DNA from: Vicinamibacteria bacterium
Lineage (GTDB): Bacteria > Acidobacteriota > Vicinamibacteria > Fen-336 > CBDFGD01
Direction: 5' to 3'
NCBI GenBank assembly: GCA_965246965.1
Contig: CBDFGD010000002.1
Location: 1,899,968-1,963,967, forward strand
Length of the DNA stretch: 64,000 nt
Notes under the pieces: generated by a model
Seen by the model: the letters and a program-made list of their open reading frames with translations, nothing else
Told to the model about the DNA's origin: nothing
The model's database searches: none
Made by a program: the position numbers and the translations under genes
Part shown: in pieces, positions 637 through 62,001 of the stretch
Position numbering within the stretch: position 1 is the stretch's first letter
Layout: every line of letters starts with the position of its first letter

Positions 637-3330
637 TCAGTTCGTCGGCACCAGCCGCTTCAGCTCCTCGACCCAGTTCTGCACGACGACGATCTGTGTG
701 CCCCCGGCCTGCGACCCGACGGGCTCCAGCATCAGGAATCGCTGTCCGTCTGGACTGACGTCGTACCAGGGGAAGCTGGCATCAGTCGGCTGGTACGGTC
801 CTGCAAAGAGCATTCGAGGCGTTCCCGCTGCAAAGCCATCGTCCGTCTCCACGGCCACCGCCATGATCCGATTCCCGCTGCGGTAAAACAGCTCACCGCC
901 TTGCGGGTTCCACACCGGTTCCTGGCCTCCGTCGCTCGAAATCTGCCACTTGCCGCCTGGCCCTGGATACGGCTGCACGTAAACCTCCCTCCGGCCCGAC
1001 TCGGTCGAGGTGTAGACCATCCAGTTGCCGTCAGGGGAAAACTTCGGTGCCGTTTCCTCATAGCCGCTCTGTAGGAACGTCTCCACCTCGCGACCCTCGA
1101 GACGCATCACCCTGATTGCGCGCCCGGCCTCCGGGTGGTCTTCGATGAACGCCAGCAGTTGCCCGTCCGGAGAGAACGATGCCGGCGAAGTCTGATAGTC
1201 AGACGTCGTCAACCTCTCCAAGCCACCGCCGCCATCGGCCAGCTGCCAGAAGATGCTCAATGGTGGACCTTCGCGAGTTGAAACGAAGGCGAACCGCTTC
1301 CCGTCGTGCGACCACTGGGGAACGGTATTGTTTCCTGGCCCAAAGGTCTGGCGGGTGAGCCGCGTGCGGAGGATCTCGTACACCCAGACATGGGTCTCAT
1401 CCTCGGCAATTCCGGCGGCTACCCACTGGCCGTCGGGCGACACCCGGGGAAACTCGTAGCTCCGAGGGGGAGCGGACAAGGGCTCAGCCACACCCTGGCG
1501 GTCCACCCAGACGAGTCGGCTCATCGATTCCTCAGCGGAACCCGCGATGTAGGCCAGGGTCCCCGTTCGGGAGATGGCAAAGTGCCCTGCGCGAAGGGCA
1601 TCAGAGGGGGAGCGAACGCCTTCCACGACCGGCACCGGAGAACCAGAGACCTCCAGCCGATCGAGATCGAGTGGAACGGCCATCACGGTTCCAGCCTGGT
1701 TGTAGACCAGATGCCCCGTGGAAGCGTAACGGGGGGTGGAGCCGCCCTGCATCAGGACCTTCCGCTCGCCCGTATCGAGCCGCTGGGCCACGATCGCCAC
1801 GTCGCTGTCGGACCCGGTAGCGGTCGCGAACAGCACCTCCTGGCCCCCGGGCAGAATCTCCGGCCAACCCTGCCAGACGCCTTGCGAGCCAGCATCCCGC
1901 GACGTGAGGGGCTCGGGCGTCCCGCCCTCTGCCGACACCCGCAGGAGTCCGGACCCGCCGACCGAGCCGAAGATGATGTGGTCATCGGGTCCCCAGCGCG
2001 CCCCCATGCCGCGGTCAGCCGTGCTGCAGATGGTCAGCGCGGTACCGCCCGTGATCGGGACCTTCTTCAGTTCCCTTCCCGCAAAGAAGCCCAGCCACTG
2101 TCCGTCGGGAGAAAGGAATGGGCTGTCCGCCCCGTCGGTTCCTGAGAGTGCCGTGTGCTCCAGGCTATCCATGCGCCGAAGATAAAGACGCACCGGATCG
2201 TTTCCCACTTGCGCGGCATAGACCATCAGGGAGCCATCCGGAGACAAGGTCAGTGGCCCGAGTGCGTTGGGCAGAATCGTTTCGTCGGCCTGCAAGGCCA
2301 CGACCGTGCGTGACACCGGGAGAGCTGGCTGCGGGGGCGTTGGTTTGAGGTTCCAGACCGCGATGCCGCTGGTCACGGCCACTAACGCCGGCAGCGCCCA
2401 CGATCTCGTCCGTCGCCACGGAGTTTCTTCCGCCCCAACGGATTCCACCGCCTGCGGGCTCGTAACGTCGAACGCGCCCTCGAGAGCTAGCCTCATGTTC
2501 CGGATGTCACCCAGGCGTTGCTTCGGGTCCTTGTGCAGGCAACGGAGCAAGTACACACGCAGCGTGGGCGACAATGCCGCGGGCAGGGCGTCCCACGATG
2601 GCTCGCTCCTGACGACCGCCGCCAGCGTGTCCGTCATGTCCTCGCCAGGAAACGCGCGTCCGCCCGTGAGCATCTCGTAGAGCTCGACGCCGAATGCCCA
2701 CACGTCGGCGCGACGGTCGACAACCTTGCCCCGGGCCTGCTCCGGGCTCATGTACGCCGCGGTCCCGAGGATGATCCCGGCCTGCGACATCGCGGGCGAC
2801 GCCAGCGTCGGGGATTGGGACAAATCCGGCGATGAGGATGTGCCGGCCGGTTCGAGTGCCTTCGCCAGGCCGAAGTCCAGCACCTTCACCGTCCCGTCTT
2901 CGCGGACCTTGACGTTCGCCGGCTTCAGGTCGCGGTGGATGATGCCGTGCTCGTGAGCCTCTTCGAGGGCCTCGGCGATCTGCTTCGCGATGGCGATGGC
3001 TTCGTCGACGGGAATCGCGCCGCGCGTCAGGCGCTCGGCGAGATCTTCACCCTCGACCAGCTCCATCACGAGCGCCTTCGCGCCACCGGCGTCCTCGAGG
3101 CCGTAGATCGCCGCGATGTGGGGGTGATTCAGGGACGCCAGCACTTCGGCTTCGCGCTGGAACCGCGCCAGGCGATCCGTATCGGCGGCGACGGCTTCAG
3201 GCAGCACCTTGATGGCGACCAGGCGCTTCAGCTTCGTGTCGGTCGCTTGATACACCTCGCCCATGCCGCCCACGCCAATCTGGGCGGTGACTTCGTACGG
3301 GCCGAGCCGGGTTCCGGCGGCGAGGGACAT
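637..3330 (-). CDS. Serine/threonine protein kinase with C-terminal TolB/WD40-like beta-propeller repeats
   Basis: 897 aa ORF; N-terminal Hanks kinase motifs ([32 protein letters not shown]); C-terminal half rich in SPDG/WxxP repeats typical of TolB-like propellers. Confidence 0.85.
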
Positions 3331-3669
3331 TGGTTTGTCCTAGCGAATGCCGGGATTCTACCCGTCAGATGGGGACGGGGGCTTTGTCTTCAATCTCGCC
3401 TGGTAGGCGGTCCATGTCCTTTCGAGTGCCATTGATGACGAGGAGCTGGCGGATCCTTCGGTCGCGCTCCTGACTGCACTCCCTCAGGATGACGCTTCCA
3501 TGAGCGTCCAACCTACCGGGCGGTAAGTCGGAGTAAACTTGGCAGATAGCATCCCGCTGTCTGGGGCCGCTAGTGGGTGAGGGTCGCTTTCGAGAGGGGG
3601 GCAGCGATTCGTCATCCTAAGTAGCTTGTTTTGTTGTTGTTAGAAGAGATCACCTCACAACGCTCAGCG

Positions 3670-4758
3670 ATGCCAGCCAAGCAACACTACTCCGTGATCG
3701 TCGGGAGCGGCTGCTACATCCCGACCCGAAGAGTGCCGAACGACGAGTTCCTCGAGCACCGGTTCTTCGACGCCGAAGGCGCACCGATCGATCACACGCA
3801 GAACGAGAAGACGGTTTGGAAGTTCGGCGAGATCACCGAGATCACGGAGCGACGCTACGTCACCGATGATCTGGTGGCTTCGGACATGGCTCTCGCCGCG
3901 GCGCGTGCGGCGCTCGAAGCTTGGGGCGGCGACCAGGAGCTGCTCGACTACGTCATCGTCGCCCACAACTTCGGTGACGTTCTCGCCGACAATCGCCGCT
4001 CAGACATGGTCCCGACGCTCGCCGCCCGCGTCAAGGAGCGGCTCGAGGTCAACAACCCTGCGTGCGTTGCCTACGACCTGCCCTTCGGCTGTCCCGGCTG
4101 GCTGCAGGCCGTGATCCAGGCGAACTACTACCTTCGCTCTGGGGACGCGCAGCGCGCCCTCGTGATCGGCGCGGAGACGTTGTCGCGCGTCTGTGATCCG
4201 CACGACCGGGACAGCATGATCTACGCGGACGGCGCCGGGGCCATCGTGCTGGAGGCGCGGGAGTCGGAGCGACCCGTCGGCGTCCTGACCCACGCAACGC
4301 GGTCGGACACTCTCGAGCACGCGCGCTTGTTGAAGATGGACCGGACGTACGACCCCGCTTGCCGCAGCGAAGCGCTGTATCTCAAGATGCGCGGCCGAAA
4401 GCTCTACGAGTACGCGCTGACGAACGTCCCCGGCGTGATGGTCGACAGCCTCGAGAAGGCGGGGCTCGAGCTCGGGGCCATCGACAAGATTCTGATTCAC
4501 CAGGCCAACGGAAAGATGGACCGGGCGATCGCGAAGCGGCTGGCTCGTCACTGCGGAACGACCCTGGAGACGGACCGGCTGGTGCCGATGACGGTCTCCT
4601 GGCTGGGCAACAGCTCCGTCGCCACGCTGCCGACGTTGCTCGATCTGATTCTGCGCGGGAAGCTCGAAGACCACACCCTCCACGATGGAGACAACGTCAT
4701 CTTCGCGTCGGTGGGAGCGGGGATGAACATCAACTCCCTCGTCTATCGCTGCGCTTGA
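3670..4758 (+). CDS. 3-oxoacyl-ACP synthase III (FabH-like KAS III) family protein
   Basis: ORF 3631..4758; likely start MPAKQHYSVIVGSGCYIP at 3670; motifs HNFGDV, AYDLPFGCPGW (active-site Cys), IHQANGKM, GAGMN. Confidence 0.8.
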   Translation: MPAKQHYSVIVGSGCYIPTRRVPNDEFLEHRFFDAEGAPIDHTQNEKTVWKFGEITEITERRYVTDDLVASDMALAAARAALEAWGGDQELLDYVIVAHNFGDVLADNRRSDMVPTLAARVKERLEVNNPACVAYDLPFGCPGWLQAVIQANYYLRSGDAQRALVIGAETLSRVCDPHDRDSMIYADGAGAIVLEARESERPVGVLTHATRSDTLEHARLLKMDRTYDPACRSEALYLKMRGRKLYEYALTNVPGVMVDSLEKAGLELGAIDKILIHQANGKMDRAIAKRLARHCGTTLETDRLVPMTVSWLGNSSVATLPTLLDLILRGKLEDHTLHDGDNVIFASVGAGMNINSLVYRCA

Positions 4759-6396: not shown

Positions 6397-7395
6397 CTAC
6401 TTCGAACCCCGGCGTTTCGCCTCGGCGATCAGATCCATGTTCCGCTCGTACGAGAGCTCGCCGGGGACCATGAGATCGGGTGGATAGGCCCGCTGCCCAT
6501 AAACCGGATACGCGCTCGTTCGCAGGTGCGCGAGCATGTGGTGACCGGACCGCGATTCGCGCTCGTGCCGAAGCGCCCCGATGTCGATCGGCGCCACGAC
6601 GATCCGCTCGCCGGGCCCGGGCGATGCCTCTGCCAACAAGCGACCGTCGAAGTCCACGACCTGACTACCGCCCGGCCAGGAGTACGGCGGGTAGTGCTTG
6701 AGGCTGGCCCCCTGGTTGGCGGCGACGACGTAGGTCATGTTCTCGAGCGCCCGGCAGCGGTTGACGACCGTCCACCAGTCCATCGGTGGCGTGGCCCCCC
6801 AGGGGTCCATGTACGCCGAGACGCGGACCAACACCTCGGCGCCGTTCGCCGCCAGCTGGCGCAGCGCCTCGGGGAACAGCCAGTCGTAGCAGATCGCGCA
6901 GCCGAGGCGGCCGATCGGCGTGTCGGCGACGGGAAACAACGGCTCCGAGTAGCCCTCGATGTCGTGGGGGCTCGTGTGCACCTCGTACGGAATCCACGTG
7001 TTGACCTTGCGGTATTTGTAGAGGATTCCCTCGGGGCCAATCAGGCACGTCGTGTTGAAGACGGCGCCGTCGTACTGGGCATCGACCTCGAGCATCGAGC
7101 CGCTCTGAATGTAGATGTCGTGCTCCTTCGCCTTCGCGTGCAGCTTCTCGGTGTGCTCGTTAGGGATCGCGACCGCGAGCTTCTCGCGCAGCTCGGCCAC
7201 GGTCTCGAAGACCGGCGCCGCGTGGGCGAACTCGGGAAAGACGACGAGGCGCACGGGCAGGAACGGGGCCGCGCCAACGACCGCCGAATCGATCATCTGC
7301 AGCATGCGGTCGGTGTTGCGGCGCATCTGGCCGCGCTCGACCGGGTTCTCGAGATCGGTCTGGCAGGCGGCGGCCGCGTATCGGAGCGTCGTCAA
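6397..7395 (-). CDS. Carbon-nitrogen hydrolase, aliphatic amidase/formamidase-like (nitrilase superfamily)
   Basis: 332 aa; catalytic triad context VVFPEFAHA (Glu), YRKVNTW (Lys), GCAICYD (Cys); overall similarity pattern to AmiE/AmiF. Confidence 0.8.
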   Translation of the reverse strand: MTTLRYAAAACQTDLENPVERGQMRRNTDRMLQMIDSAVVGAAPFLPVRLVVFPEFAHAAPVFETVAELREKLAVAIPNEHTEKLHAKAKEHDIYIQSGSMLEVDAQYDGAVFNTTCLIGPEGILYKYRKVNTWIPYEVHTSPHDIEGYSEPLFPVADTPIGRLGCAICYDWLFPEALRQLAANGAEVLVRVSAYMDPWGATPPMDWWTVVNRCRALENMTYVVAANQGASLKHYPPYSWPGGSQVVDFDGRLLAEASPGPGERIVVAPIDIGALRHERESRSGHHMLAHLRTSAYPVYGQRAYPPDLMVPGELSYERNMDLIAEAKRRGSK

Positions 7396-24002: not shown

Positions 24003-24177
24003 GGCTAAGTACTCGGATCCGCAATTACGGTTGCATTCGAACGCCGATGCATCCCGCCTGGCTGCGTCGCTCATCGGTCAAATACTCCCGGTATTTTCCC
24101 TCTTCGGCTCCTTGCCATCCGGGCGCCTCGGCGTTCTCGGTTGCGACACCGTACTTACGGATCAGAGTACTAAGGCG
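24003..24177 (+). repeat. Repeat family copy A: 92-nt conserved core (24045-24132) flanked by ~45-nt mutually complementary arms
   Basis: Core about 95% identical to copies at 26626-26793 (rc) and 61836-62001; arms ggctaagtactcggatccgcaattacggttgcattcgaacgccg / cggcgttctcggttgcgacaccgtacttacggatcagagtactaaggcg are inverted complements. Confidence 0.75.
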
Positions 24178-25640: not shown

Positions 25641-26570
25641 TCAATTCGCGCCGCGGGCGCGACGCTCGAGCGGCAGCAGCGCCGCGTACAGAAAATCGTG
25701 TACCGGAGTCGCGACTCCGGCGCGCTGCCCCCGCCGCGACACCGAGCCGCTTTGTGACTCCAGCTCCGAGGGTCGCCCCTCGGCGATGTCGCGCTGCATC
25801 GACGTGGTGCTCACCGGTGCGAGCGCATCCACGAAGGCGAGGGTCTTGGCCACGACTTTTTCCGGCAGTTGGACACCCTCGGCCCGGGCCACGGCGGCGG
25901 TCTCCTCGAGAGCCTTCGTCAGCAGCCGGCGCGACTGCGGGACGTCTCGGTAGCCGCCCACCGGCAGGCGCGTCACGGCTCCGAGACCCGAGATGGCGGC
26001 AATGAAGAGGAACTTCTCCCACAGAACCGCCGCGATGTCTGGCGCTATTTCACACTTGACGCCCGATCGATCGAAGCGGGCTCGAAGTCCCTCCACGCGC
26101 GTCGAGGCCGAACCGTCGCGCTCCCCGAAGACGACCCGCGGCTCCACGGCGGCGTGGCGGATGTGTCCGGGCGCCTCGATGAACGACATGATCCAGGTCG
26201 CCCCCTCCACGATCCTATCCACGCCGGCAACGGCTCTGATCTGATCGCCTGCATCCACACCGTTCTGCAACGTGAGCACCGCCGTCCCGGCGCCTAGCAG
26301 CGGGCGCATCACCGTCACCGCCTCCGGCACCTGCCAGGCCTTCACCGCGCATATCACCCAGTCGACGGGACCCAGCTCGTTCGGGTCTCGAATGACTTTT
26401 GCGGGATCGACGTGGATGTCACCGTTGATCGAGCTGACGCGCAGTCCCTTCGCCAGGATCGCCTCCAGGTGGGCTCCCCGCGCCACGAAGGTGACGTCCT
26501 CACCGGCCGCCGCGAGCCGCGCACCGTAGTAGCCCCCGACTCCGCCAGAACCGAAGATCGCGAATCTCAT
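25641..26570 (-). CDS. panE: 2-dehydropantoate 2-reductase
   Basis: [33 protein letters not shown]-terminal Rossmann; ApbA/PanE family features. Confidence 0.8.
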
Positions 26571-26625
26571 TTCGCCGACTCGACTCCTCCTGAAAACCGC
26601 AGTCTATGTCGGGATCGCGATGGGG

Positions 26626-26793
26626 CTAGTGGCCCGTAACAGGGAGGTCGATGCCAGCGAGACCGTCGAGGCGCCCGGATGGCAAGGAGCCGAAGAGGGA
26701 GAATACCGGGAGTATTTGACCGATGAGCGACGCAGCCAAGCGGGATGCATCGGCGGTCGCAACGGTATCGAATCCCCTGTTACAGGCCACTAG
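26626..26793 (-). repeat. Repeat family copy B (inverted relative to A and C)
   Basis: Core 26663-26756 is rc of copy A core; arms gctagtggcccgtaacagggaggtcgatgcc / ggtatcgaatcccctgttacaggccactag are inverted complements but differ in sequence from arms of A and C. Confidence 0.75.
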
Positions 26794-28688
26794 AGAGCAT
26801 TGTGGAGCTGAGCGGCGAACGCTCGCCATTGGATGAGCACACCCCAGGCCACGACGTAGGAGAACGCCACCGTCGCGAGCAGCCACTCAGGACGACTTCG
26901 ATGCGCCAGAGCCCGAAGTGACGCGCCGGCCATCAGGCACACCAGCGGCGTGACGAAAGTGGTCTCGTGGCCGTGCAGAAAGATGTCGGGGAGCTTCGCC
27001 CGCCCGAGCAATAGAAGAAGGTAGGCAAGCCCCCAGCCGACCAGCAGAACCGTGTGATGCCTGGCTCGTCGCAAGGTCACGAAAAGCCCGGCCAGCGCGA
27101 GTAGCGGCAGCAGACCGTCGAAGAAATCACGGGTGCGCGCGCAGGCGACGGCCAGGAACGACTGCGCCTCGTAGCGTCCCGCGGAAGCCGCAGCACCCAC
27201 GTCCAGGCGCGAGAGGATCGCGACGACGATGTCCAGAAAGCGTCCGTAGTAGAGGATCAGCGATGTCGCGGCCCCGGCGACGCCGACAGCGGCGAGCACC
27301 GCGGCCTGGCGGGGTCGCTTCGTCGCCAGCAGCAGAAGCGAGACGGACAGCACCAGCGCTCCGCTGTTGAGCAGGCCCGAAACGTACGCGAGCTGGCTCG
27401 CGGCAACGACGGCCACACCGAGCACGAACGCCGCGCGTCGCTCGATTCGCGGAAGGTTGTACGCCAGCCACAGCAGCAGCACGAGATCGAAGACGTGACC
27501 CAAAAGCGACGGCAGGAAGGCGAAGCTGAGGCGCGTGCCGTAGGTCGGCACGACGACCATCAGCAGAGCCGGCATCAGAGGCGTCACGCCGAGCCGAAGT
27601 GCAAGCGCCCAGACCAGTGCGATCGGAATCACCGAGAGAGCGACGCCCGCGAGCTTCATCGCGGTGATCAGCTCGTCGTACTCGAGCGGAGAGAGGACGA
27701 ACGGAAGATGGAACGCAGGGCTGTACGGGAAGGCGTACGAGCGATCGACGACCTCCAGCTTCCACACGCCGTGCTCGAGGATGGTCGCGGCCGGATCGGA
27801 CGAGAACCCGAGACCCGCCTCGCGAATCTCCTCGGCGAAGCGAGCGTGGGTGTGCAGATCCGGGTAGTAGAAGTCGGGATGGTTGACCGCCGCCGCGCGC
27901 GCCAAAAGCGCCACGCCGACGATCGTGGCGAGGGCTCGCAGCGTCGGGGGCGAGCAGCGAAGCCGCCACCCGACCGCGAGACCCAGCCCGGCGACGACGG
28001 CGAGCAGAAGCGGGACGCCTGTCAGCATCCGGTGGGCCAGCCAAGGATCCGTCACGAGACCCGCGATCACGAAAGCCGCAACGACGCCGGCCTGAGCGGT
28101 GGCCCAGCGCCGCCGCCAACCGGCCAGGCGCAAGACGAGGAAGCAGATGGCGACGAGCGCCGCCGACCCGAGACGGGCGCGAGGGGCCAGTCGGACCCGC
28201 GCGCGCTCGCCCAGCTCGAAGACCACCCGGTCGAGCCTCAGGCCCAACCGCTGACGGTCGTGGGAGTCGACCCGGAAGCGCAGGGAGAGGGGCGTCTCGG
28301 GCAGCGCGGCGAGATCCACGCGCCGTTCCTCGACTCGCCCGCCGCGACACGTGAACCGGTCGATGTCCGCGCCGGCGAGCGAGACGTCGACGACCGCGGT
28401 CTCGGGCAACACCCGCGCAAACCGGTACGACACGGCAATCGGCCCGCCCTCCACGAGGAGCGGCAACGCGACCGTCGCGTCGTAGCCGGTCCAGTGGGTC
28501 CCGACCCGGTCCCGGACCTCGAAGCGAGGCGTGAACCCGGTCGTCAACGCCGAGTCGCCGGGACCGAGGTTCCCGACGATCGTCGAGGGGCCTCGCGCAC
28601 CGTGTGACGCCGCGGCGATCGTCAGCGCGACGAGCACCGCTCCCGGCCAGGCTTCGGCCAGCGCGCGGCGAGCCCGAGGGGAACTCAT
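26790..28688 (-). CDS. Polytopic integral membrane protein (N-terminal periplasmic domain + ~12 TM; glycosyltransferase-C-like?), downstream of sat/cysC
   Basis: 632 aa ORF, highly hydrophobic C-terminal two-thirds; no confident family assignment from sequence alone. Confidence 0.5.
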   Translation of the reverse strand: MSSPRARRALAEAWPGAVLVALTIAAASHGARGPSTIVGNLGPGDSALTTGFTPRFEVRDRVGTHWTGYDATVALPLLVEGGPIAVSYRFARVLPETAVVDVSLAGADIDRFTCRGGRVEERRVDLAALPETPLSLRFRVDSHDRQRLGLRLDRVVFELGERARVRLAPRARLGSAALVAICFLVLRLAGWRRRWATAQAGVVAAFVIAGLVTDPWLAHRMLTGVPLLLAVVAGLGLAVGWRLRCSPPTLRALATIVGVALLARAAAVNHPDFYYPDLHTHARFAEEIREAGLGFSSDPAATILEHGVWKLEVVDRSYAFPYSPAFHLPFVLSPLEYDELITAMKLAGVALSVIPIALVWALALRLGVTPLMPALLMVVVPTYGTRLSFAFLPSLLGHVFDLVLLLWLAYNLPRIERRAAFVLGVAVVAASQLAYVSGLLNSGALVLSVSLLLLATKRPRQAAVLAAVGVAGAATSLILYYGRFLDIVVAILSRLDVGAAASAGRYEAQSFLAVACARTRDFFDGLLPLLALAGLFVTLRRARHHTVLLVGWGLAYLLLLLGRAKLPDIFLHGHETTFVTPLVCLMAGASLRALAHRSRPEWLLATVAFSYVVAWGVLIQWRAFAAQLHNAL

Positions 28689-38207: not shown

Positions 38208-39347
38208 ATGGCTATTGGAATCAAGGTCCCGAGCGTCGGCGAGTCGATCACGGAGGTCACGGTCGCCGAGTGGCTCAAGAAGGTGGGCGACTCGGTGGCC
38301 GAGGACGAGCCCGTCGTGACGCTGGAGACCGACAAGGCCAACGTAGACGTGCCCGCTCCAGCGGCCGGTCGTCTGGCGCGGATTCTCAAAGACGTCAATG
38401 ACACGGCACAGGTGGGCGAGGCTCTCGCGGAACTCAAGCCTCTCGGTGCCGGAGCGACTCCGGAGCTACCGAAGACCGCTCCGCCGCCTGCGGCGCCAGC
38501 GTCGCCCACCGCAGTGGCGCCGACACCGCCGCCCGCTCCGGTCCAGGCCGCGCCACCGCCGCCGCCGCCGCCCGCGACCTTGCCACCGGTCGCTCAGAAG
38601 CCGAAGCAGCCGGCACGGCCGACCCCTGCGGCTCCCGCTCCCGGTTCCCGCGAGGTGCGGCGCGTCGCGATGACGCCGATCCGGCGCCGCATCGCCGAGC
38701 GCCTGGTCCAGGCGCAACAGAACGCGGCGATGCTCACCACCTTCAACGAGATCGACATGTCCGCGGTGATGGCGCTGCGCAGAGAGCACAAGGAGGGGTT
38801 CCTGCGAAAGCACGGGATCAAGCTCGGCTTCATGTCGTTCTTCATCAAGGCGGCCATCGCGGGGTTGCGTGAGGTGCCCGAGGTCAACGCAGAGATCCGC
38901 GACCGGGACATCGTCTATCGCGACTACTACGACGTCTGTGTCGCCGTCGATACCGGGCGCGGCCTCGTGGTACCCGTGATCCGCAACGCCGAGACGATGA
39001 GCTTTGCCGAGCTCGAGTACTCGATCGTCGACTTCTCGACCCGCGCGAAGGAGAACCGCCTCAAGCCCGACGAGCTGCAGGGCGGGACGTTCACGATCAG
39101 CAACGGCGGCGTGTTCGGCTCGCTGCTCTCGACTCCGATCCTCAACCCGCCGCAGAGCGGCATCCTGGGAATGCACTCCATCCAGAGCCGGGGTGTCGAC
39201 GTAGCGGGGCAGCTCGAGCTGCGCCCCATGATGTACGTGGCGATGAGCTACGACCACCGCGTCGTGGACGGCCGCGGCGCCGTCACGTGCCTGCGGCGCA
39301 TCAAGGAATGCATCGAAGAGCCGGCCCGGCTGCTGGTGGACGTCTAG
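38208..39347 (+). CDS. sucB: Dihydrolipoyllysine-residue succinyltransferase (E2)
   Basis: Lipoyl domain (VTLETDKANVDVPA), Pro/Ala linker, catalytic DHRVVDG motif. Confidence 0.9.
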   Translation: MAIGIKVPSVGESITEVTVAEWLKKVGDSVAEDEPVVTLETDKANVDVPAPAAGRLARILKDVNDTAQVGEALAELKPLGAGATPELPKTAPPPAAPASPTAVAPTPPPAPVQAAPPPPPPPATLPPVAQKPKQPARPTPAAPAPGSREVRRVAMTPIRRRIAERLVQAQQNAAMLTTFNEIDMSAVMALRREHKEGFLRKHGIKLGFMSFFIKAAIAGLREVPEVNAEIRDRDIVYRDYYDVCVAVDTGRGLVVPVIRNAETMSFAELEYSIVDFSTRAKENRLKPDELQGGTFTISNGGVFGSLLSTPILNPPQSGILGMHSIQSRGVDVAGQLELRPMMYVAMSYDHRVVDGRGAVTCLRRIKECIEEPARLLVDV

Positions 39348-53424: not shown

Positions 53425-53631
53425 ATGCCGCGAAAGAAGATGTACCGGTCTCGTGACGAGCGGATCATCGGAGGCGTGTGCGGCGGCCTGGCGCTGCGCC
53501 TGAAATGGAGCCCGGCTGCGGTCCGAGCCATCTTCGTCGTGGGCACGCTCTTCCCACTGATACCAGGCCCGCTCGTCTACCTGCTGCTCTGGATCCTGAT
53601 CCCGCTGGAGTCGGGGCGCCGTGCCCCCTAG
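53425..53631 (+). CDS. PspC-domain small membrane protein
   Basis: YRSRDERIIGGVCGGLA motif + TM. Confidence 0.7.
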   Translation: MPRKKMYRSRDERIIGGVCGGLALRLKWSPAAVRAIFVVGTLFPLIPGPLVYLLLWILIPLESGRRAP

Positions 53632-53632
53632 C

Positions 53633-55090
53633 AGTCCGTGGTGAAAGTGCCCTTTGAGCGGGCCTTACGTGACAAGTGCATGTCTTAGTGTTCGTGCATG
53701 GCGATGGGCAAACATAAGAAACGTCAAGAGGCGTTGTGGGTGCCGACGAGCGATCTGCCGCGGAGCCCTGGGCATCCTTTCTATTCGCGTTTGAATAGAG
53801 CGCTGGAGTCCGAGGGCTTCGACAGATTCGTGGAATCGCGATGCCGCCGGTTCTATGCGGCGGTTCTGGGGCGTCCGAGCCTGGCCCCTGGACGCTACTT
53901 TCGGCTCTTGCTGGTGGGGTACTTCGAGGGCCTGGACTCCGAGCGTGGGATGGCGTGGCGTGCAGCGGACTCGCTTGGGGTGCGGAGCTTCCTGGGGCTT
54001 GGGTTGGAGGAGCGGGCCCCGGAACATTCGACGATCTCGCGGACCCGGCGGCTGATCGACTTGGAAACCCACCGTGACGTGTTCACCTGGATCCAAGAGC
54101 GCCTGGCGCAGACGGGTCTTCTGAGCGGAAAGACGATTGCGATCGACGCGACGACGCTGGAAGCGAACGCGGCGATGCGGAGCATCGTGCGTCGGGATAC
54201 CGGAGAGACCTACCAGGAGTTCTTGAAGCGTCTGGCGAAGGCGTCTGGCATTCGCACGCCCTCTCGGCAAGCGCTGGCGCGGCTGGATCGGCGGCGCAAG
54301 AAGAAAGGCTCGAACGAGGAATGGAAGAGTCCGGCGGATCCGGACGCGAAGATCGCCAAAATGAAGGATGGTCGTACCCATCTGGCCCACAAAACCGAGC
54401 AGGCCGTGGACCTGACGACGGGGGCGATCGTGTCGGTGACGGTCCAGGGCGCGAACCAGGGCGACACGAGCACGCTGGGCAAGACGCTCAAGGACGCCGA
54501 GACTCAGATCGAGCGCGTTCAGAAGCGGACCCGTGCTTGCCATCCCGGAGGCCTGCAGGAAGTGGTTGGCGACAAGGGTTACCACTCCACTGCGGTTCTC
54601 CAGGAGTTGGACGCTGCGGGGCTGCGTGCGTACATATCCGAACCCGACCGTGGTCGTCGGCGATGGCGGGGCGACACCGAGAGCCGTGGCCTGGTGTACG
54701 CGAACCGTCGGCGAAGCGGCGGGGCACGAGGTCAGCGTCTGCACCGCCTCCGAGGAGAACGGGTGGAGCGACCCTTCGCTCATCTCTACCGAACCGGCCG
54801 CATGAGACGCACGCACCTTCGCGGTCACGAGAACATCCTCAAACGGGTGCTGGTCCACAGCGGTGCCTTCAATCTCGGGCTGCTGATGCGCCAGATCGTC
54901 GGAGTCGGGACGCCGAGGGGCCTGCAGGGCCGGCTCCATGACCTTCTGGCACAGCTCCTTCACCTCTGGAACCGCCTGACGGCCATCACAACGGCTCCTA
55001 CCAACCACGAACAGCTCTCGCACAATGCCCGCCACTCAGCTCCGTCGCCCTCCATCGCCGCCTCGGAAGGGCTTTAACCACGGACTGCTA
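53633..55090 (+). mobile_element. IS element, IS5/IS1182-type, with ~25-bp imperfect terminal inverted repeats and 4-bp CTAG target duplication
   Basis: Left end cagtccgtggtgaaagtgccc (53633-), right end …ccacggactg (55081-55090); flanked by CTAG at 53629-53632 and 55091-55094; contains single DDE transposase ORF. Confidence 0.8.
53698..55077 (+). CDS. DDE transposase (InsH-N/DUF772 + DDE_Tnp_1 type)
   Basis: 459 aa; IAIDATTLEANAAMRS, VVGDKGYHS DDE motifs. Confidence 0.85.
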   Translation: MAMGKHKKRQEALWVPTSDLPRSPGHPFYSRLNRALESEGFDRFVESRCRRFYAAVLGRPSLAPGRYFRLLLVGYFEGLDSERGMAWRAADSLGVRSFLGLGLEERAPEHSTISRTRRLIDLETHRDVFTWIQERLAQTGLLSGKTIAIDATTLEANAAMRSIVRRDTGETYQEFLKRLAKASGIRTPSRQALARLDRRRKKKGSNEEWKSPADPDAKIAKMKDGRTHLAHKTEQAVDLTTGAIVSVTVQGANQGDTSTLGKTLKDAETQIERVQKRTRACHPGGLQEVVGDKGYHSTAVLQELDAAGLRAYISEPDRGRRRWRGDTESRGLVYANRRRSGGARGQRLHRLRGERVERPFAHLYRTGRMRRTHLRGHENILKRVLVHSGAFNLGLLMRQIVGVGTPRGLQGRLHDLLAQLLHLWNRLTAITTAPTNHEQLSHNARHSAPSPSIAASEGL

Positions 55091-60771: not shown

Positions 60772-61839
60772 GTGGGCGTCAATCTCGAAAAGTACCGCGA
60801 GACGCTGCTGAAGGCGGACTTCCTCGCGCACATCCCAGAGGCGACGCTTCGTGACTTCGTCGCCGCCGGGCGGGAGATCACGCTCCGTTCGGGCCAGCTC
60901 ATTTTCGAGGCCGGCGACTCGGGCGACTGCATGTACATCGTCATCGAGGGCCAGCTGCTGATCTACCGGGACGAGACCGAGCTCTCCTTCGTCGTGCCCG
61001 GCGGTTATTTCGGCGAGATGGCGATGCTGGAGGGCCAGGTCCGATCGGCCAGCGTCAAGGCACTCGAGCGGGCCCGCCTGATGGAGGTGAGCCAGGACAC
61101 CTTCACGCGCTTCATCTCACCGCATCCCGACGCACTGATCGTCCTGCTCAAGACCCTGTCCACCCACGCCCGGCTCGACCTGGACGCCTTGTCGCGGAAC
61201 TACCAGCGTCTCCGCGAGTACTCGACCCGTGTCGAGGCCACCAACCGAGAGCTCTACAAGATGAGGTCCGATCTCGTCGAGAGCAATCGGGAGCTGGAGC
61301 GCTTGTCGAGCCTGGATGCGTTGACCGGGATCTCGAACCGCAGACGCTTCGACTACGTGCTCTCCGAGGAGTGGCGCCGCGCCGCTCGTGCGAAGTCCCC
61401 GATGGCGCTCATCATGCTGGACATCGACCACTTCAAGTCCTACAACGACGCTCACGGTCACGTCGCCGGGGATCACGTACTGACGCGCGTCGGCGAGATC
61501 ATGGAGAGCGCTCCCCGGCGCGCCGGCGACCTCGTCGCCCGTTACGGCGGGGAGGAGTTCGCGTTCGTGCTGGCCGAGACGGGCCCCGAAGGCGCGACTC
61601 AGGTCGCCGAGGCCGTGCGCGAGGAGGTTCTCCAGCTCAAGATCGCACACGGCGGCTCTTCGGTCCACGAGTACCTCACGATCAGCGCAGGAGTGGCGTC
61701 GGTCGTGCCGAAGCCGAGTGACGATCCCACCGAGCTGATCCAACTAGCCGATCAGGCCCTGTACCTCGCCAAGCAGCGCGGGCGGAATCGCGTCGAGGTC
61801 AGCGGCCCCGAGAGCGCCGAGCACTCTCAGGTGAGCTAG
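60772..61839 (+). CDS. cNMP-binding domain + GGDEF diguanylate cyclase
   Basis: PBC GEMAMLEGQVRSASVKA; GGDEF core RYGGEEFAFVL with DxxNDxxGH upstream. Confidence 0.85.
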   Translation: MGVNLEKYRETLLKADFLAHIPEATLRDFVAAGREITLRSGQLIFEAGDSGDCMYIVIEGQLLIYRDETELSFVVPGGYFGEMAMLEGQVRSASVKALERARLMEVSQDTFTRFISPHPDALIVLLKTLSTHARLDLDALSRNYQRLREYSTRVEATNRELYKMRSDLVESNRELERLSSLDALTGISNRRRFDYVLSEEWRRAARAKSPMALIMLDIDHFKSYNDAHGHVAGDHVLTRVGEIMESAPRRAGDLVARYGGEEFAFVLAETGPEGATQVAEAVREEVLQLKIAHGGSSVHEYLTISAGVASVVPKPSDDPTELIQLADQALYLAKQRGRNRVEVSGPESAEHSQVS

Positions 61840-62001
61840 TGTCATGCGCCAGAGATTTGTCGGCATTCGAGCGCCGATGCATCCCGCCTGACTGCGTCGC
61901 TCATTGGTCAAATACTCCCGGTATTCTCCCTCTTCGACTCCTTGCCAGCCGGGCGCCTCGACGCCCTCGGTGCGCAACAACTTCTGGCGCAGGCCACTAG
62001 T
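61836..62001 (+). repeat. Repeat family copy C
   Basis: Core 61873-61964 matches copies A/B; arms gctagtgtcatgcgccagagatttgtcggcattcgagcgccg / cgacgccctcggtgcgcaacaacttctggcgcaggccactag are inverted complements; overlaps GGDEF stop TAG (61837-61839) and putative start of next gene. Confidence 0.75.

Follow-up and report, generated by a model that had tools for sequence, protein, structure and literature searches.

A probable non-autonomous transposon with IS630-type ends and a conserved folded core beside panE in a Vicinamibacteria genome

Introduction

Type II MITEs are defined by a similarity to insertion sequences (IS) that is confined to their ends (PMC10969869). Elements of the IS630 family insert at TA, duplicate this dinucleotide and prefer CTAG (PMC2170065 and the papers of Tenzen and Ohtsubo cited there). 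The known elements most like the one studied here, copy B, are RUP (IS630-Spn1), Correia and ERIC/YPAL. RUP has been proposed to be mobilised by IS630-Spn1, and it shows IS630-like ends, a TA duplication, about a hundred copies, a stable hairpin transcript and a frequent location beside or inside ISs (PMC2229807). The Correia/NEMIS elements of Neisseria are MITEs of 107-155 nt with a TA duplication, whose long-hairpin transcripts are cut by RNase III and whose length variants are distinguished by internal modules (PMC2229807). ERIC sequences are co-transcribed with neighbouring genes and exert an orientation-dependent, RNA-level effect on mRNA stability (PMC2229807; PMC2759123).

We analysed a window of 64,000 nucleotides, the whole stretch of DNA under study, from contig CBDFGD010000002.1 of a Vicinamibacteria bacterium. 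A sequence-only reading had described copy B in this window as an inverted counterpart of a copy A with complementary arms of its own, and had concluded that the pairing of the arms, not their sequence, is conserved. Our analysis indicates that copy B is probably one insertion of a non-autonomous DNA transposon (type II MITE) with IS630-type ends and a conserved, strand-specific folded core module.

Results

Three copies of the element in the window

BLAST, alignment and covariance-model searches agreed on exactly three copies in the window, A, B and C, and a 32-mer from the core occurred three times against zero expected. The copies and their neighbours are as follows.

24006-24173, minus strand: copy A, same core, class-2 arms (GTACTCTGATCCGTAAGTACGG...), direct TTA...TTA duplication at the flanks
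25641-26570, minus strand: panE, with ApbA and ApbA_C domains
26626-26793, plus strand: copy B, 168-nt imperfect palindrome running from C-TA-G to C-TA-G, covariance-model score 148 bits
26627-26628 and 26791-26792: duplicated target TA of copy B, within CTAG
26629-26790, plus strand: copy B, element proper, 162 nt (166 with the TA duplication)
26629-26657, plus strand: left arm of copy B, similar to an inverted repeat of the IS630 family in its outer ~14 nt (GTGGCCCGTAACAG)
26658-26759, plus strand: conserved core of copy B, common to all arm classes, predicted hairpin with bulges and conserved G.U pairs
26689-26733, plus strand: central module of copy B, GC-CGA-A-GAG, apical stem-loop, then C-CGA-U-GAG-CGAC
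26701-26717: apical stem-loop of copy B, GAAUAC CGGGA GUAUUU
26760-26790, plus strand: right arm of copy B, with the reverse complement GTGGCCTGTAACAGGGGATTCGATACC
26790-28688, minus strand: 632-aa membrane-protein ORF, downstream of sat/cysC by synteny, with its TAG stop codon at 26790-26792 in plus-strand coordinates
60772-61839, plus strand: ORF that stops in the terminal CTAG of copy C
61836-62000, minus strand: copy C, same core, third arm pair (GTGGCCTGCGCCAGAAG...), CTAG at both ends

As had been read from the sequence, copy B lies in the opposite orientation to copy A and has complementary arms unlike those of A; copy C has the orientation of A. The cores of the three copies are 91-94% identical over about 100 nt, and the outer ~30 nt on each side pair within each copy although they are unalignable between copies. 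Copy B begins CTAGTGGCCCGTAACAGGGAGGTCGATGCC and ends GGTATCGAATCCCCTGTTACAGGCCACTAG, just as quoted before. A repeat finder gave its arms as 26626-26672 and 26747-26793, 47 nt each with 77% complementarity and 74 nt between them, and the 30-mers quoted in the sequence-only reading are the outer parts of these arms. The inner left arm is specific to the B subfamily and pairs with the right arm.

The copy B region (172 nt) was predicted to fold as RNA into a single hairpin of -97.1 kcal/mol, compared with a mean of -57.3 +/- 3.8 for shuffled sequences (z -10.5; none of 200 shuffles equalled it). The opposite strand was predicted to fold at -85.5 kcal/mol, and copy B as single-stranded DNA at -43.5 kcal/mol (z -5.8). 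The predicted structures of A, B and C agree with each other, and the inconsistency between copies that had been named in advance as a refutation did not appear.

No reading frame is conserved among the three copies: A and C are interrupted in every frame, and the one open frame of B is not kept. Two mechanical ORFs of 57 and 86 aa traverse copy B (26620-26793, plus strand, and 26626-26886, minus strand); they have no conservation in A or C and therefore should not be annotated as genes. A consensus scan of the element for a sigma-70-like promoter of its own and for an intrinsic terminator found neither. Rfam 15 gave nothing at gathering score across the window and nothing at E<=10 around copy B, and a plasmid database searched with copy B gave no match. 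Weak covariance-model matches at 38258, 31856 and 19285 of the window were rejected as GC-rich coding sequence.

Insertion at a stop codon and polymorphism between related genomes

Copy B does lie between the start of panE and the 3' end of the membrane-protein gene downstream of sat/cysC, as had been stated, but its position is not free spacer: its terminal CTAG supplies the TAG stop codon of the ORF at 26790-28688, so that the element abuts the gene. At the corresponding loci of a sister genome (L082-L084) the site is empty, reading ..CTCTG TAG CC CGATCCC.. (CGATCCCGAC), and the filled site of the window reads ..CTCTC-TA-GTGGCC...GGCCAC-TA-GCCCC...CGATCCCGAC, with TA duplicated. PanE of the sister genome is 83% identical to that of the window, and the orthologue of the 632-aa ORF (L084, 4052-5959) ends at the unoccupied TAG, 41 nt before panE. 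The reverse situation is seen at sat/cysC, whose stop codon is occupied by an A-type copy in the sister genome, whereas the window shows no more than an 81-nt spacer there.

This A-type copy on the sat/cysC stop codon (L084:3745-3975) contains an internal insertion of ~60 nt, and two related assemblies have one or two IS630-family ISs at its terminal CTAG (L082:2862-3978; L083:1741-2857 and 2856-3972); the window has neither the A-type copy nor those inserted ISs. CTAG is about 7-fold depleted in the window: base composition predicts ~196 sites and 27 are present, 6 of which belong to the termini of the three MITE copies or of the full-length IS at 53629-55090.

The element family and its target sites

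An exact 20-mer from the core was found at no fewer than 81 loci of the genome collection, all of them in Vicinamibacterales or other Acidobacteriota MAGs and often many per genome, and viral contigs searched with the same 20-mer gave 0 matches. With a covariance model built from 36 diverse copies (alignment A2), 94 distinct copies were detected in 711 kb, mainly intergenic and dispersed; by rough extrapolation, a Vicinamibacterales genome may hold about a hundred copies. The copies measure ~162-168 nt and have CTAG at both ends in 43 of ~93 cases. The end variants TTAG...CTAA and ATAG...CTAA were also seen, which indicates that the duplication comprises the central TA alone, the C and G beside it being a target preference. 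A TAG stop codon directly adjoins about 24 of the 94 copies, which may lie in either orientation, and copy C is likewise placed. The genome has 67% G+C, and its rare CTAG sites frequently fall on TAG stop codons. The copies showed no significant bias in orientation, whether measured against genes or against GC skew.

The family has the properties of a type II MITE: it lies within the size range of 50-500 bp and is non-coding, is bounded by inverted repeats and a target duplication, occurs in many copies, and combines IS-like ends with an unrelated interior. The TA target, the TA duplication and the preference for CTAG are the traits of IS630/Tc1-mariner-type insertion. In open-access papers searched by topic and end sequence, we found no description of this family.

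Two other kinds of palindrome were considered and rejected. Integron attC sites (RYYYAAC / GTTRRRY) do not agree with the ends TA-G...C-TA or with single copies beside unrelated genes outside any array. REP/REPIN or IS200/IS605-derived palindromes (20-40 nt, GTAG/CGTC heads, no inverted repeats with duplication, RAYT/TnpA partner) do not agree with 162 nt, inverted repeats, a TA or 3-bp duplication and DDE partners. Inside some class-2 copies, a GC-rich palindrome of ~35-45 nt (GGGGYCCCCAACGCG...CGCGTTGGGG) lies at the same core position (L032:~4700-4750, L064:~2000-2045, L033:~1290), and it may be a second, tinier mobile hairpin.

Arms of the element and ends of insertion sequences

The arm ends of copy B, TA followed by GTGGCCYGTAAC (B-type arms GTGGCCYGTAACAGGG), match the termini of ISs from the same lineage that belong to the IS630 family (DDE_3), namely L082:2862-3978 (ends CTAGTGGCCTGTAAGCG / CTAGCGGCCCGTTAATA) and L089:11764-12951 (end CTAGTGTCCTGTAAC); the nearest known IS630 ends agree with the B arms at only ~13-14 of the outermost 15 positions. 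No IS630-family gene was found within the window. The same arms were found at a second locus (L090:15396-15563), so that the B-type is a multi-copy subfamily. At that locus a truncated B-type copy (L090:15300-15391) lies directly upstream of the complete one.

Similar relations hold for other arm types. The first 11 nt of copy C are identical to the L082 IS630 end, the ends of the IS630-family element L017:41-1124 match the arms of L012:7182, L052:421 and L059:1623, and those of L014:981-2121, also of the IS630 family, match the arms of L049:2723. Class-1 arms (CAGCCCGTGGTGAAAGTCC...) agree without mismatch, over 22-25 nt, with the termini of ISs of 1.46 kb, one at L048:713-2174 and one in the window.

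53629-55090, plus strand: full-length IS, 1,462 bp, CTAG-flanked inverted repeats (CAGTCCGTGGTGAAAGTGCCC), class-1 arm type
53698-55077: transposase of this IS, 459 aa, DUF772/DDE_Tnp_1

For the transposases of ISs with class-1 ends, the best NCBIfam models were IS1182 and IS5, the IS1182 score being below its cut-off. The window transposase was found as an identical protein on 119 contigs, so that this IS is probably active, and it is likely the partner of the class-1 elements and not of copy B. In all, the partner ISs (IS630-family and IS5/IS1182-like) have 14-25 nt of their ends in common with the matching arm class, without any relation in the interior. In class 2, to which copy A belongs, most of the copies that could be read on both sides have 3-bp direct flanks (TTA...TTA, TAA...TAA, CTA...CTA); the 3-bp duplication of copy A is IS5-like behaviour, unlike the TA classes.

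The outer arms are complementary because they are terminal inverted repeats, that is, complementary by construction. On the simplest reading, therefore, the arms of B and A differ because the two have different transposase partners and not because an RNA stem has covaried freely. The claim that pairing rather than sequence is conserved thus carries less weight for the outer arms, which are transposon inverted repeats, but it stands for the inner arms and the core, where compensatory changes keep the structure.

Another IS is found beside some MITE termini. An IS701-family IS (DDE_5) of 1.42 kb with ends CTAG followed by TACTACTTTGTTAGATC occurs at L013:3618-4966, L010:5363-6781 and ~15 other loci of genome CBDAOD. 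Among 31 IS701-family ends examined, the majority abut a MITE end with CTAG common to both, which suggests that this IS targets MITE termini or the CTAG that they regenerate.

Re-assortment of ends and cores

The A-, B- and C-type copies of the window lineage share core changes (GGAGCCGA in place of GGCGCGA), and the cores of A, B and C are mutual best matches despite their unrelated arms. In another genome, the cores of different arm classes are more divergent (0.80-0.85 identical). In a chimeric copy (L071:1079-1186), a left arm of class 1 is followed by part of the core, within which the sequence passes to a right arm of the TGTCC type. We infer that ends and cores are re-assorted most probably by recombination or gene conversion across the core that they have in common. 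An IS701-like IS follows immediately after the chimeric copy.

Covariation in the core

The consensus fold of alignment A2 (RNAalifold and pair counts) is one long hairpin in which 96.6% of the cells are paired. In this alignment, 32 of 53 pairs are changed on both sides; none of 500 shuffles was as good and no slid register came near. Eleven compensated pairs are in the inner helices and core, outside any IS end. The core thus shows compensatory changes that support a specific fold, as is generally expected of structured RNA. The pairing of the arms is mostly a property of transposon ends, and no such end explains the pairing of the core.

The motif of the module is CGA-N-GAG and CGA-N'-GAG around an apical hairpin, N pairing with N'. 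These two heptamers are direct and not inverted repeats, and are therefore not predicted by a DNA palindrome; read antiparallel, they would form two tandem G.A/A.G mismatches flanking one Watson-Crick pair. Across the aligned sequences, the N:N' pair (72/102) is A-U 13 times, G-C 13 times and C-G 7 times. The apical stem of divergent copies is wholly changed in sequence and still pairs, five of its six pairs being compensated. The G.U pairs 51/125 and 79/95 are nearly fixed, and the sense strand was predicted to be more stable than the antisense strand in 82 of 94 copies, with a mean difference of 8.8 kcal/mol that comes partly from one inherited purine-rich loop. A class-1 copy of the window's lineage (L085:19869-20034) has a strongly divergent core in which only the apical hairpin (GGAATACCGGAAGTATTCC) is recognisable.

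Rare and shared variants behave differently. Among 42 class-1 copies, singleton variants gave 18 G.U and 19 A.C pairs, and the two are about equally frequent also among variants present in at most two copies, which is the pattern of neutral decay after insertion. Pair states present in at least three of the 42 copies comprise, in small numbers, 8 G.U, 1 A.C and 11 fully compensated pairs. This excess of G.U in shared states suggests that the constraint acts on propagating lineages and on one strand.

The module outside the window's lineage

A degenerate module pattern (GCGCGA-N-GAG, 20-26 nt, GA-N-CGA-N-GAG-N-AAC) matched at least 120 metagenomic contigs of 41-73% G+C. The instances fall into a short class of 161-167-nt hairpin elements with further arm types and a long class of 269-275 nt bounded by TA-GGGCCTGTTGACA...TGTCAACAGGCCC-TA. 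The fold of the 270-nt class consists of an outer stem and two hairpin domains, and the module starts 59-61 nt from the left TA in both classes. Among 111 distinct metagenomic instances, N and N' form a Watson-Crick pair in 102, where independence of the two positions would give 50, and nearly all of the 111 apical stems differ in sequence. The 270-nt class was found on plasmids of Azotobacter chroococcum, Halomonas and Pseudomonas aeruginosa. Unannotated, TA-flanked 270-nt elements with ends GGGTCTGTTGACG lie between ordinary genes at L212:358-628 (P. aeruginosa plasmid NZ_CP017294.1) and L211:~403-672 (Azotobacter chroococcum pAcX50f).

Asymmetric metagenomic matches were also considered as 5' leaders of autonomous ISs. 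This reading was rejected: the downstream ORFs are ordinary (inositol monophosphatase, MlaD/MlaC, epimerase) and the elements close in matching inverted repeats after ~270 nt. Rfam searches of 20 metagenomic loci gave nothing at the module positions, and only noise for the Pseudomonas and Azotobacter copies. One module-bearing metagenomic contig (L168) has an Acido-Lenti-1 RNA match and a group II intron domain (2757-2802 and 7117-7186), both away from the module.

Discussion

Taking the ends and the core together, we propose the following scheme. An IS630-family DDE transposase, supplied in trans, would bind the outer ~15-25 bp of each arm of copy B, and the element would be excised by cut-and-paste and re-inserted at TA, preferably in the rare CTAG. 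Copies A and C would be elements of the same kind with other ends, so that IS630-family transposases may mobilise B and C in trans and other DDE transposases the other classes. Mobilisation by IS630-type transposases is proposed from end similarity and target duplication. The middle ~100 nt would be a module that folds on one strand and has been placed between the ends of at least two unrelated transposase families. As our best guess, the module acts single-stranded, most probably as RNA co-transcribed with neighbouring genes. It may limit the harm of insertion or modulate the fate of the mRNA, by analogy with ERIC and Correia, and lineages that keep the fold might then spread better. An RNA role fits the G.U evidence and sits uneasily with the absence of orientation bias. 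Moreover, hairpin-templated repair or gene conversion could produce some of the compensatory changes without selection.

Several competing explanations were weighed. The strong covariation, the G.U pairs conserved on one strand and the better folding of the sense strand in 82 of 94 copies are what one would expect of a free-standing family of structured small-RNA genes with its own promoter, for which mobility would be incidental or absent. We regard such a family as very improbable, because the copies have target-site duplications and filled/empty polymorphism, the arm ends are the ends of full-length ISs, the orientation to genes is random with many copies on stop codons, and private mutations decay neutrally after insertion; the consensus scan showed neither a sigma-70-like promoter nor an intrinsic terminator, and Rfam had no match. 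It is less far-fetched, yet still unlikely, that the element is an ordinary MITE with an inert core, in which conservation reflects recent spread and gene conversion, and covariation reflects palindromic origin and template-switch repair. Many MITEs are palindromic over their whole length (PMC2229807; PMC10969869), rare variants disrupt and preserve pairs with about equal frequency, and the cores are homogenised within the window lineage. Such an origin does not explain the non-palindromic direct repeats CGA-N-GAG, whose sole variable position covaries in 102 of 111 instances and which are found in Gammaproteobacteria and Acidobacteriota, nor the apical stems that are wholly different in sequence and all pair, nor the two G.U pairs that were kept and not 'repaired', nor the constant 59-61 nt between module and left end in two architectures. 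The wide occurrence of the module is hard to reconcile with a lack of function.

The fixed distance from module to end and the involvement of several transposase families might also point to a role at the DNA level, in which strand extrusion or a cruciform joins the ends of a 166-bp element too short to loop, and the module serves as a nucleation or protein-binding site. The predicted single-stranded DNA fold is stable (-43.5 kcal/mol, z -5.8), and the constraint is seen on propagating lineages and not on individual insertions, both consistent with such a role. We give it limited credence, since transposase and double-stranded ends are described as sufficient for the transposition of IS630/Tc1-mariner elements (PMC2170065), so that such a role would be without precedent; a cruciform predicts equal frequencies of G.T and A.C, yet an asymmetry was observed, and the full-length partner ISs lack the module. 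A kinship with ERIC was also examined, the element then being a distant member of the enterobacterial ERIC/IRU (and YPAL) superfamily. Both have the build of an imperfect palindrome of ~127-168 nt that ends in a duplicated TA and forms a stable RNA hairpin (PMC2229807; PMC2759123). In ERIC, inspection by eye shows the blocks GGCAAG..GAG..[central hairpin]..GAGCGAACGCAGCC, in which purine-rich direct repeats lie on both sides of the central hairpin as they do in our element. The best local alignment pairs TAAGTGA..GATGAGC-AACGCAGCCA with ERIC TAAGTGACTGGGGTGAGCGAACGCAGCCA. However, this alignment reaches only z = 2.7, on the sense strand only, and a profile HMM (nhmmer, 36 copies) ranked ERIC, SeRU-1 and YPAL no higher than shuffled controls, so that true membership appears quite doubtful. 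Returning to the mobile MITE with a folded module, we tentatively consider, as one possibility, that the module is a functional single-stranded RNA or extruded-DNA structure promoting the spread or retention of MITEs, which was recombined onto IS630/Tc1-mariner and IS5/IS1182 ends across Acidobacteriota and Gammaproteobacteria and which may even be an ancestral form of the ERIC core.

Among described elements, RUP is taken to match copy B in its small non-coding build, IS630-like ends, TA duplication, copy number, hairpin (predicted here) and IS neighbourhood. On the other hand, RUP is 107 nt long, occurs in Firmicutes and has one set of ends, whereas the core described here also accompanies ends of the IS5/IS1182 type and is part of a class that duplicates 3 bp; the structural conservation of the core across phyla is likewise not reported for RUP. 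ERIC/IRU (RU-1) and YPAL (RU-2) are alike in being imperfect palindromes of 127-168 nt with TA termini, a TA duplication and purine-rich direct repeats flanking a central hairpin, but they differ in having no statistically supported sequence homology to our element, in occurring in other phyla and, for ERIC, in having no known partner transposase. Correia/NEMIS differs in its single type of 24-bp inverted repeat and its IHF site, and is not known to have a covarying core common to different end types.

Plant MITEs offer a further parallel. Stowaway (Tc1/mariner) and Tourist (PIF/Harbinger, related to IS5) have TA and 3-bp TWA duplications, respectively, and the ends of two transposase superfamilies, and our family is split in a similar way into TA classes and class 2 with 3 bp. 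In plants, Stowaway and Tourist are not known to share an internal sequence, whereas the TA classes and class 2 do share it here. In vertebrates, CORE-SINEs, V-SINEs and Deu-SINEs, which are retroposons mobilised by LINEs, combine a conserved central domain with varying heads and tails. The likeness, one central domain with different mobilising machineries, is an analogy of organisation only. Thus, the element is otherwise of a known MITE kind, and what is unusual is the shared covarying core together with ends from unrelated transposase families and a reach across phyla.

Finally, MITEs are usually defined by their ends, with the interior taken as filler, and here the interior is the conserved part. 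In Vicinamibacterales, the elements create spurious ORFs, regenerate stop codons and mark recent insertion polymorphisms among close genomes. If the module is functional, it would determine in cis how successful a MITE is or how well the host tolerates it, for instance through control of mRNA 3' ends, and it would provide a testable link to the long-unexplained ERIC repeats. If the single-stranded reading is true, the module would be a bacterial counterpart of the central domain of CORE-SINEs.
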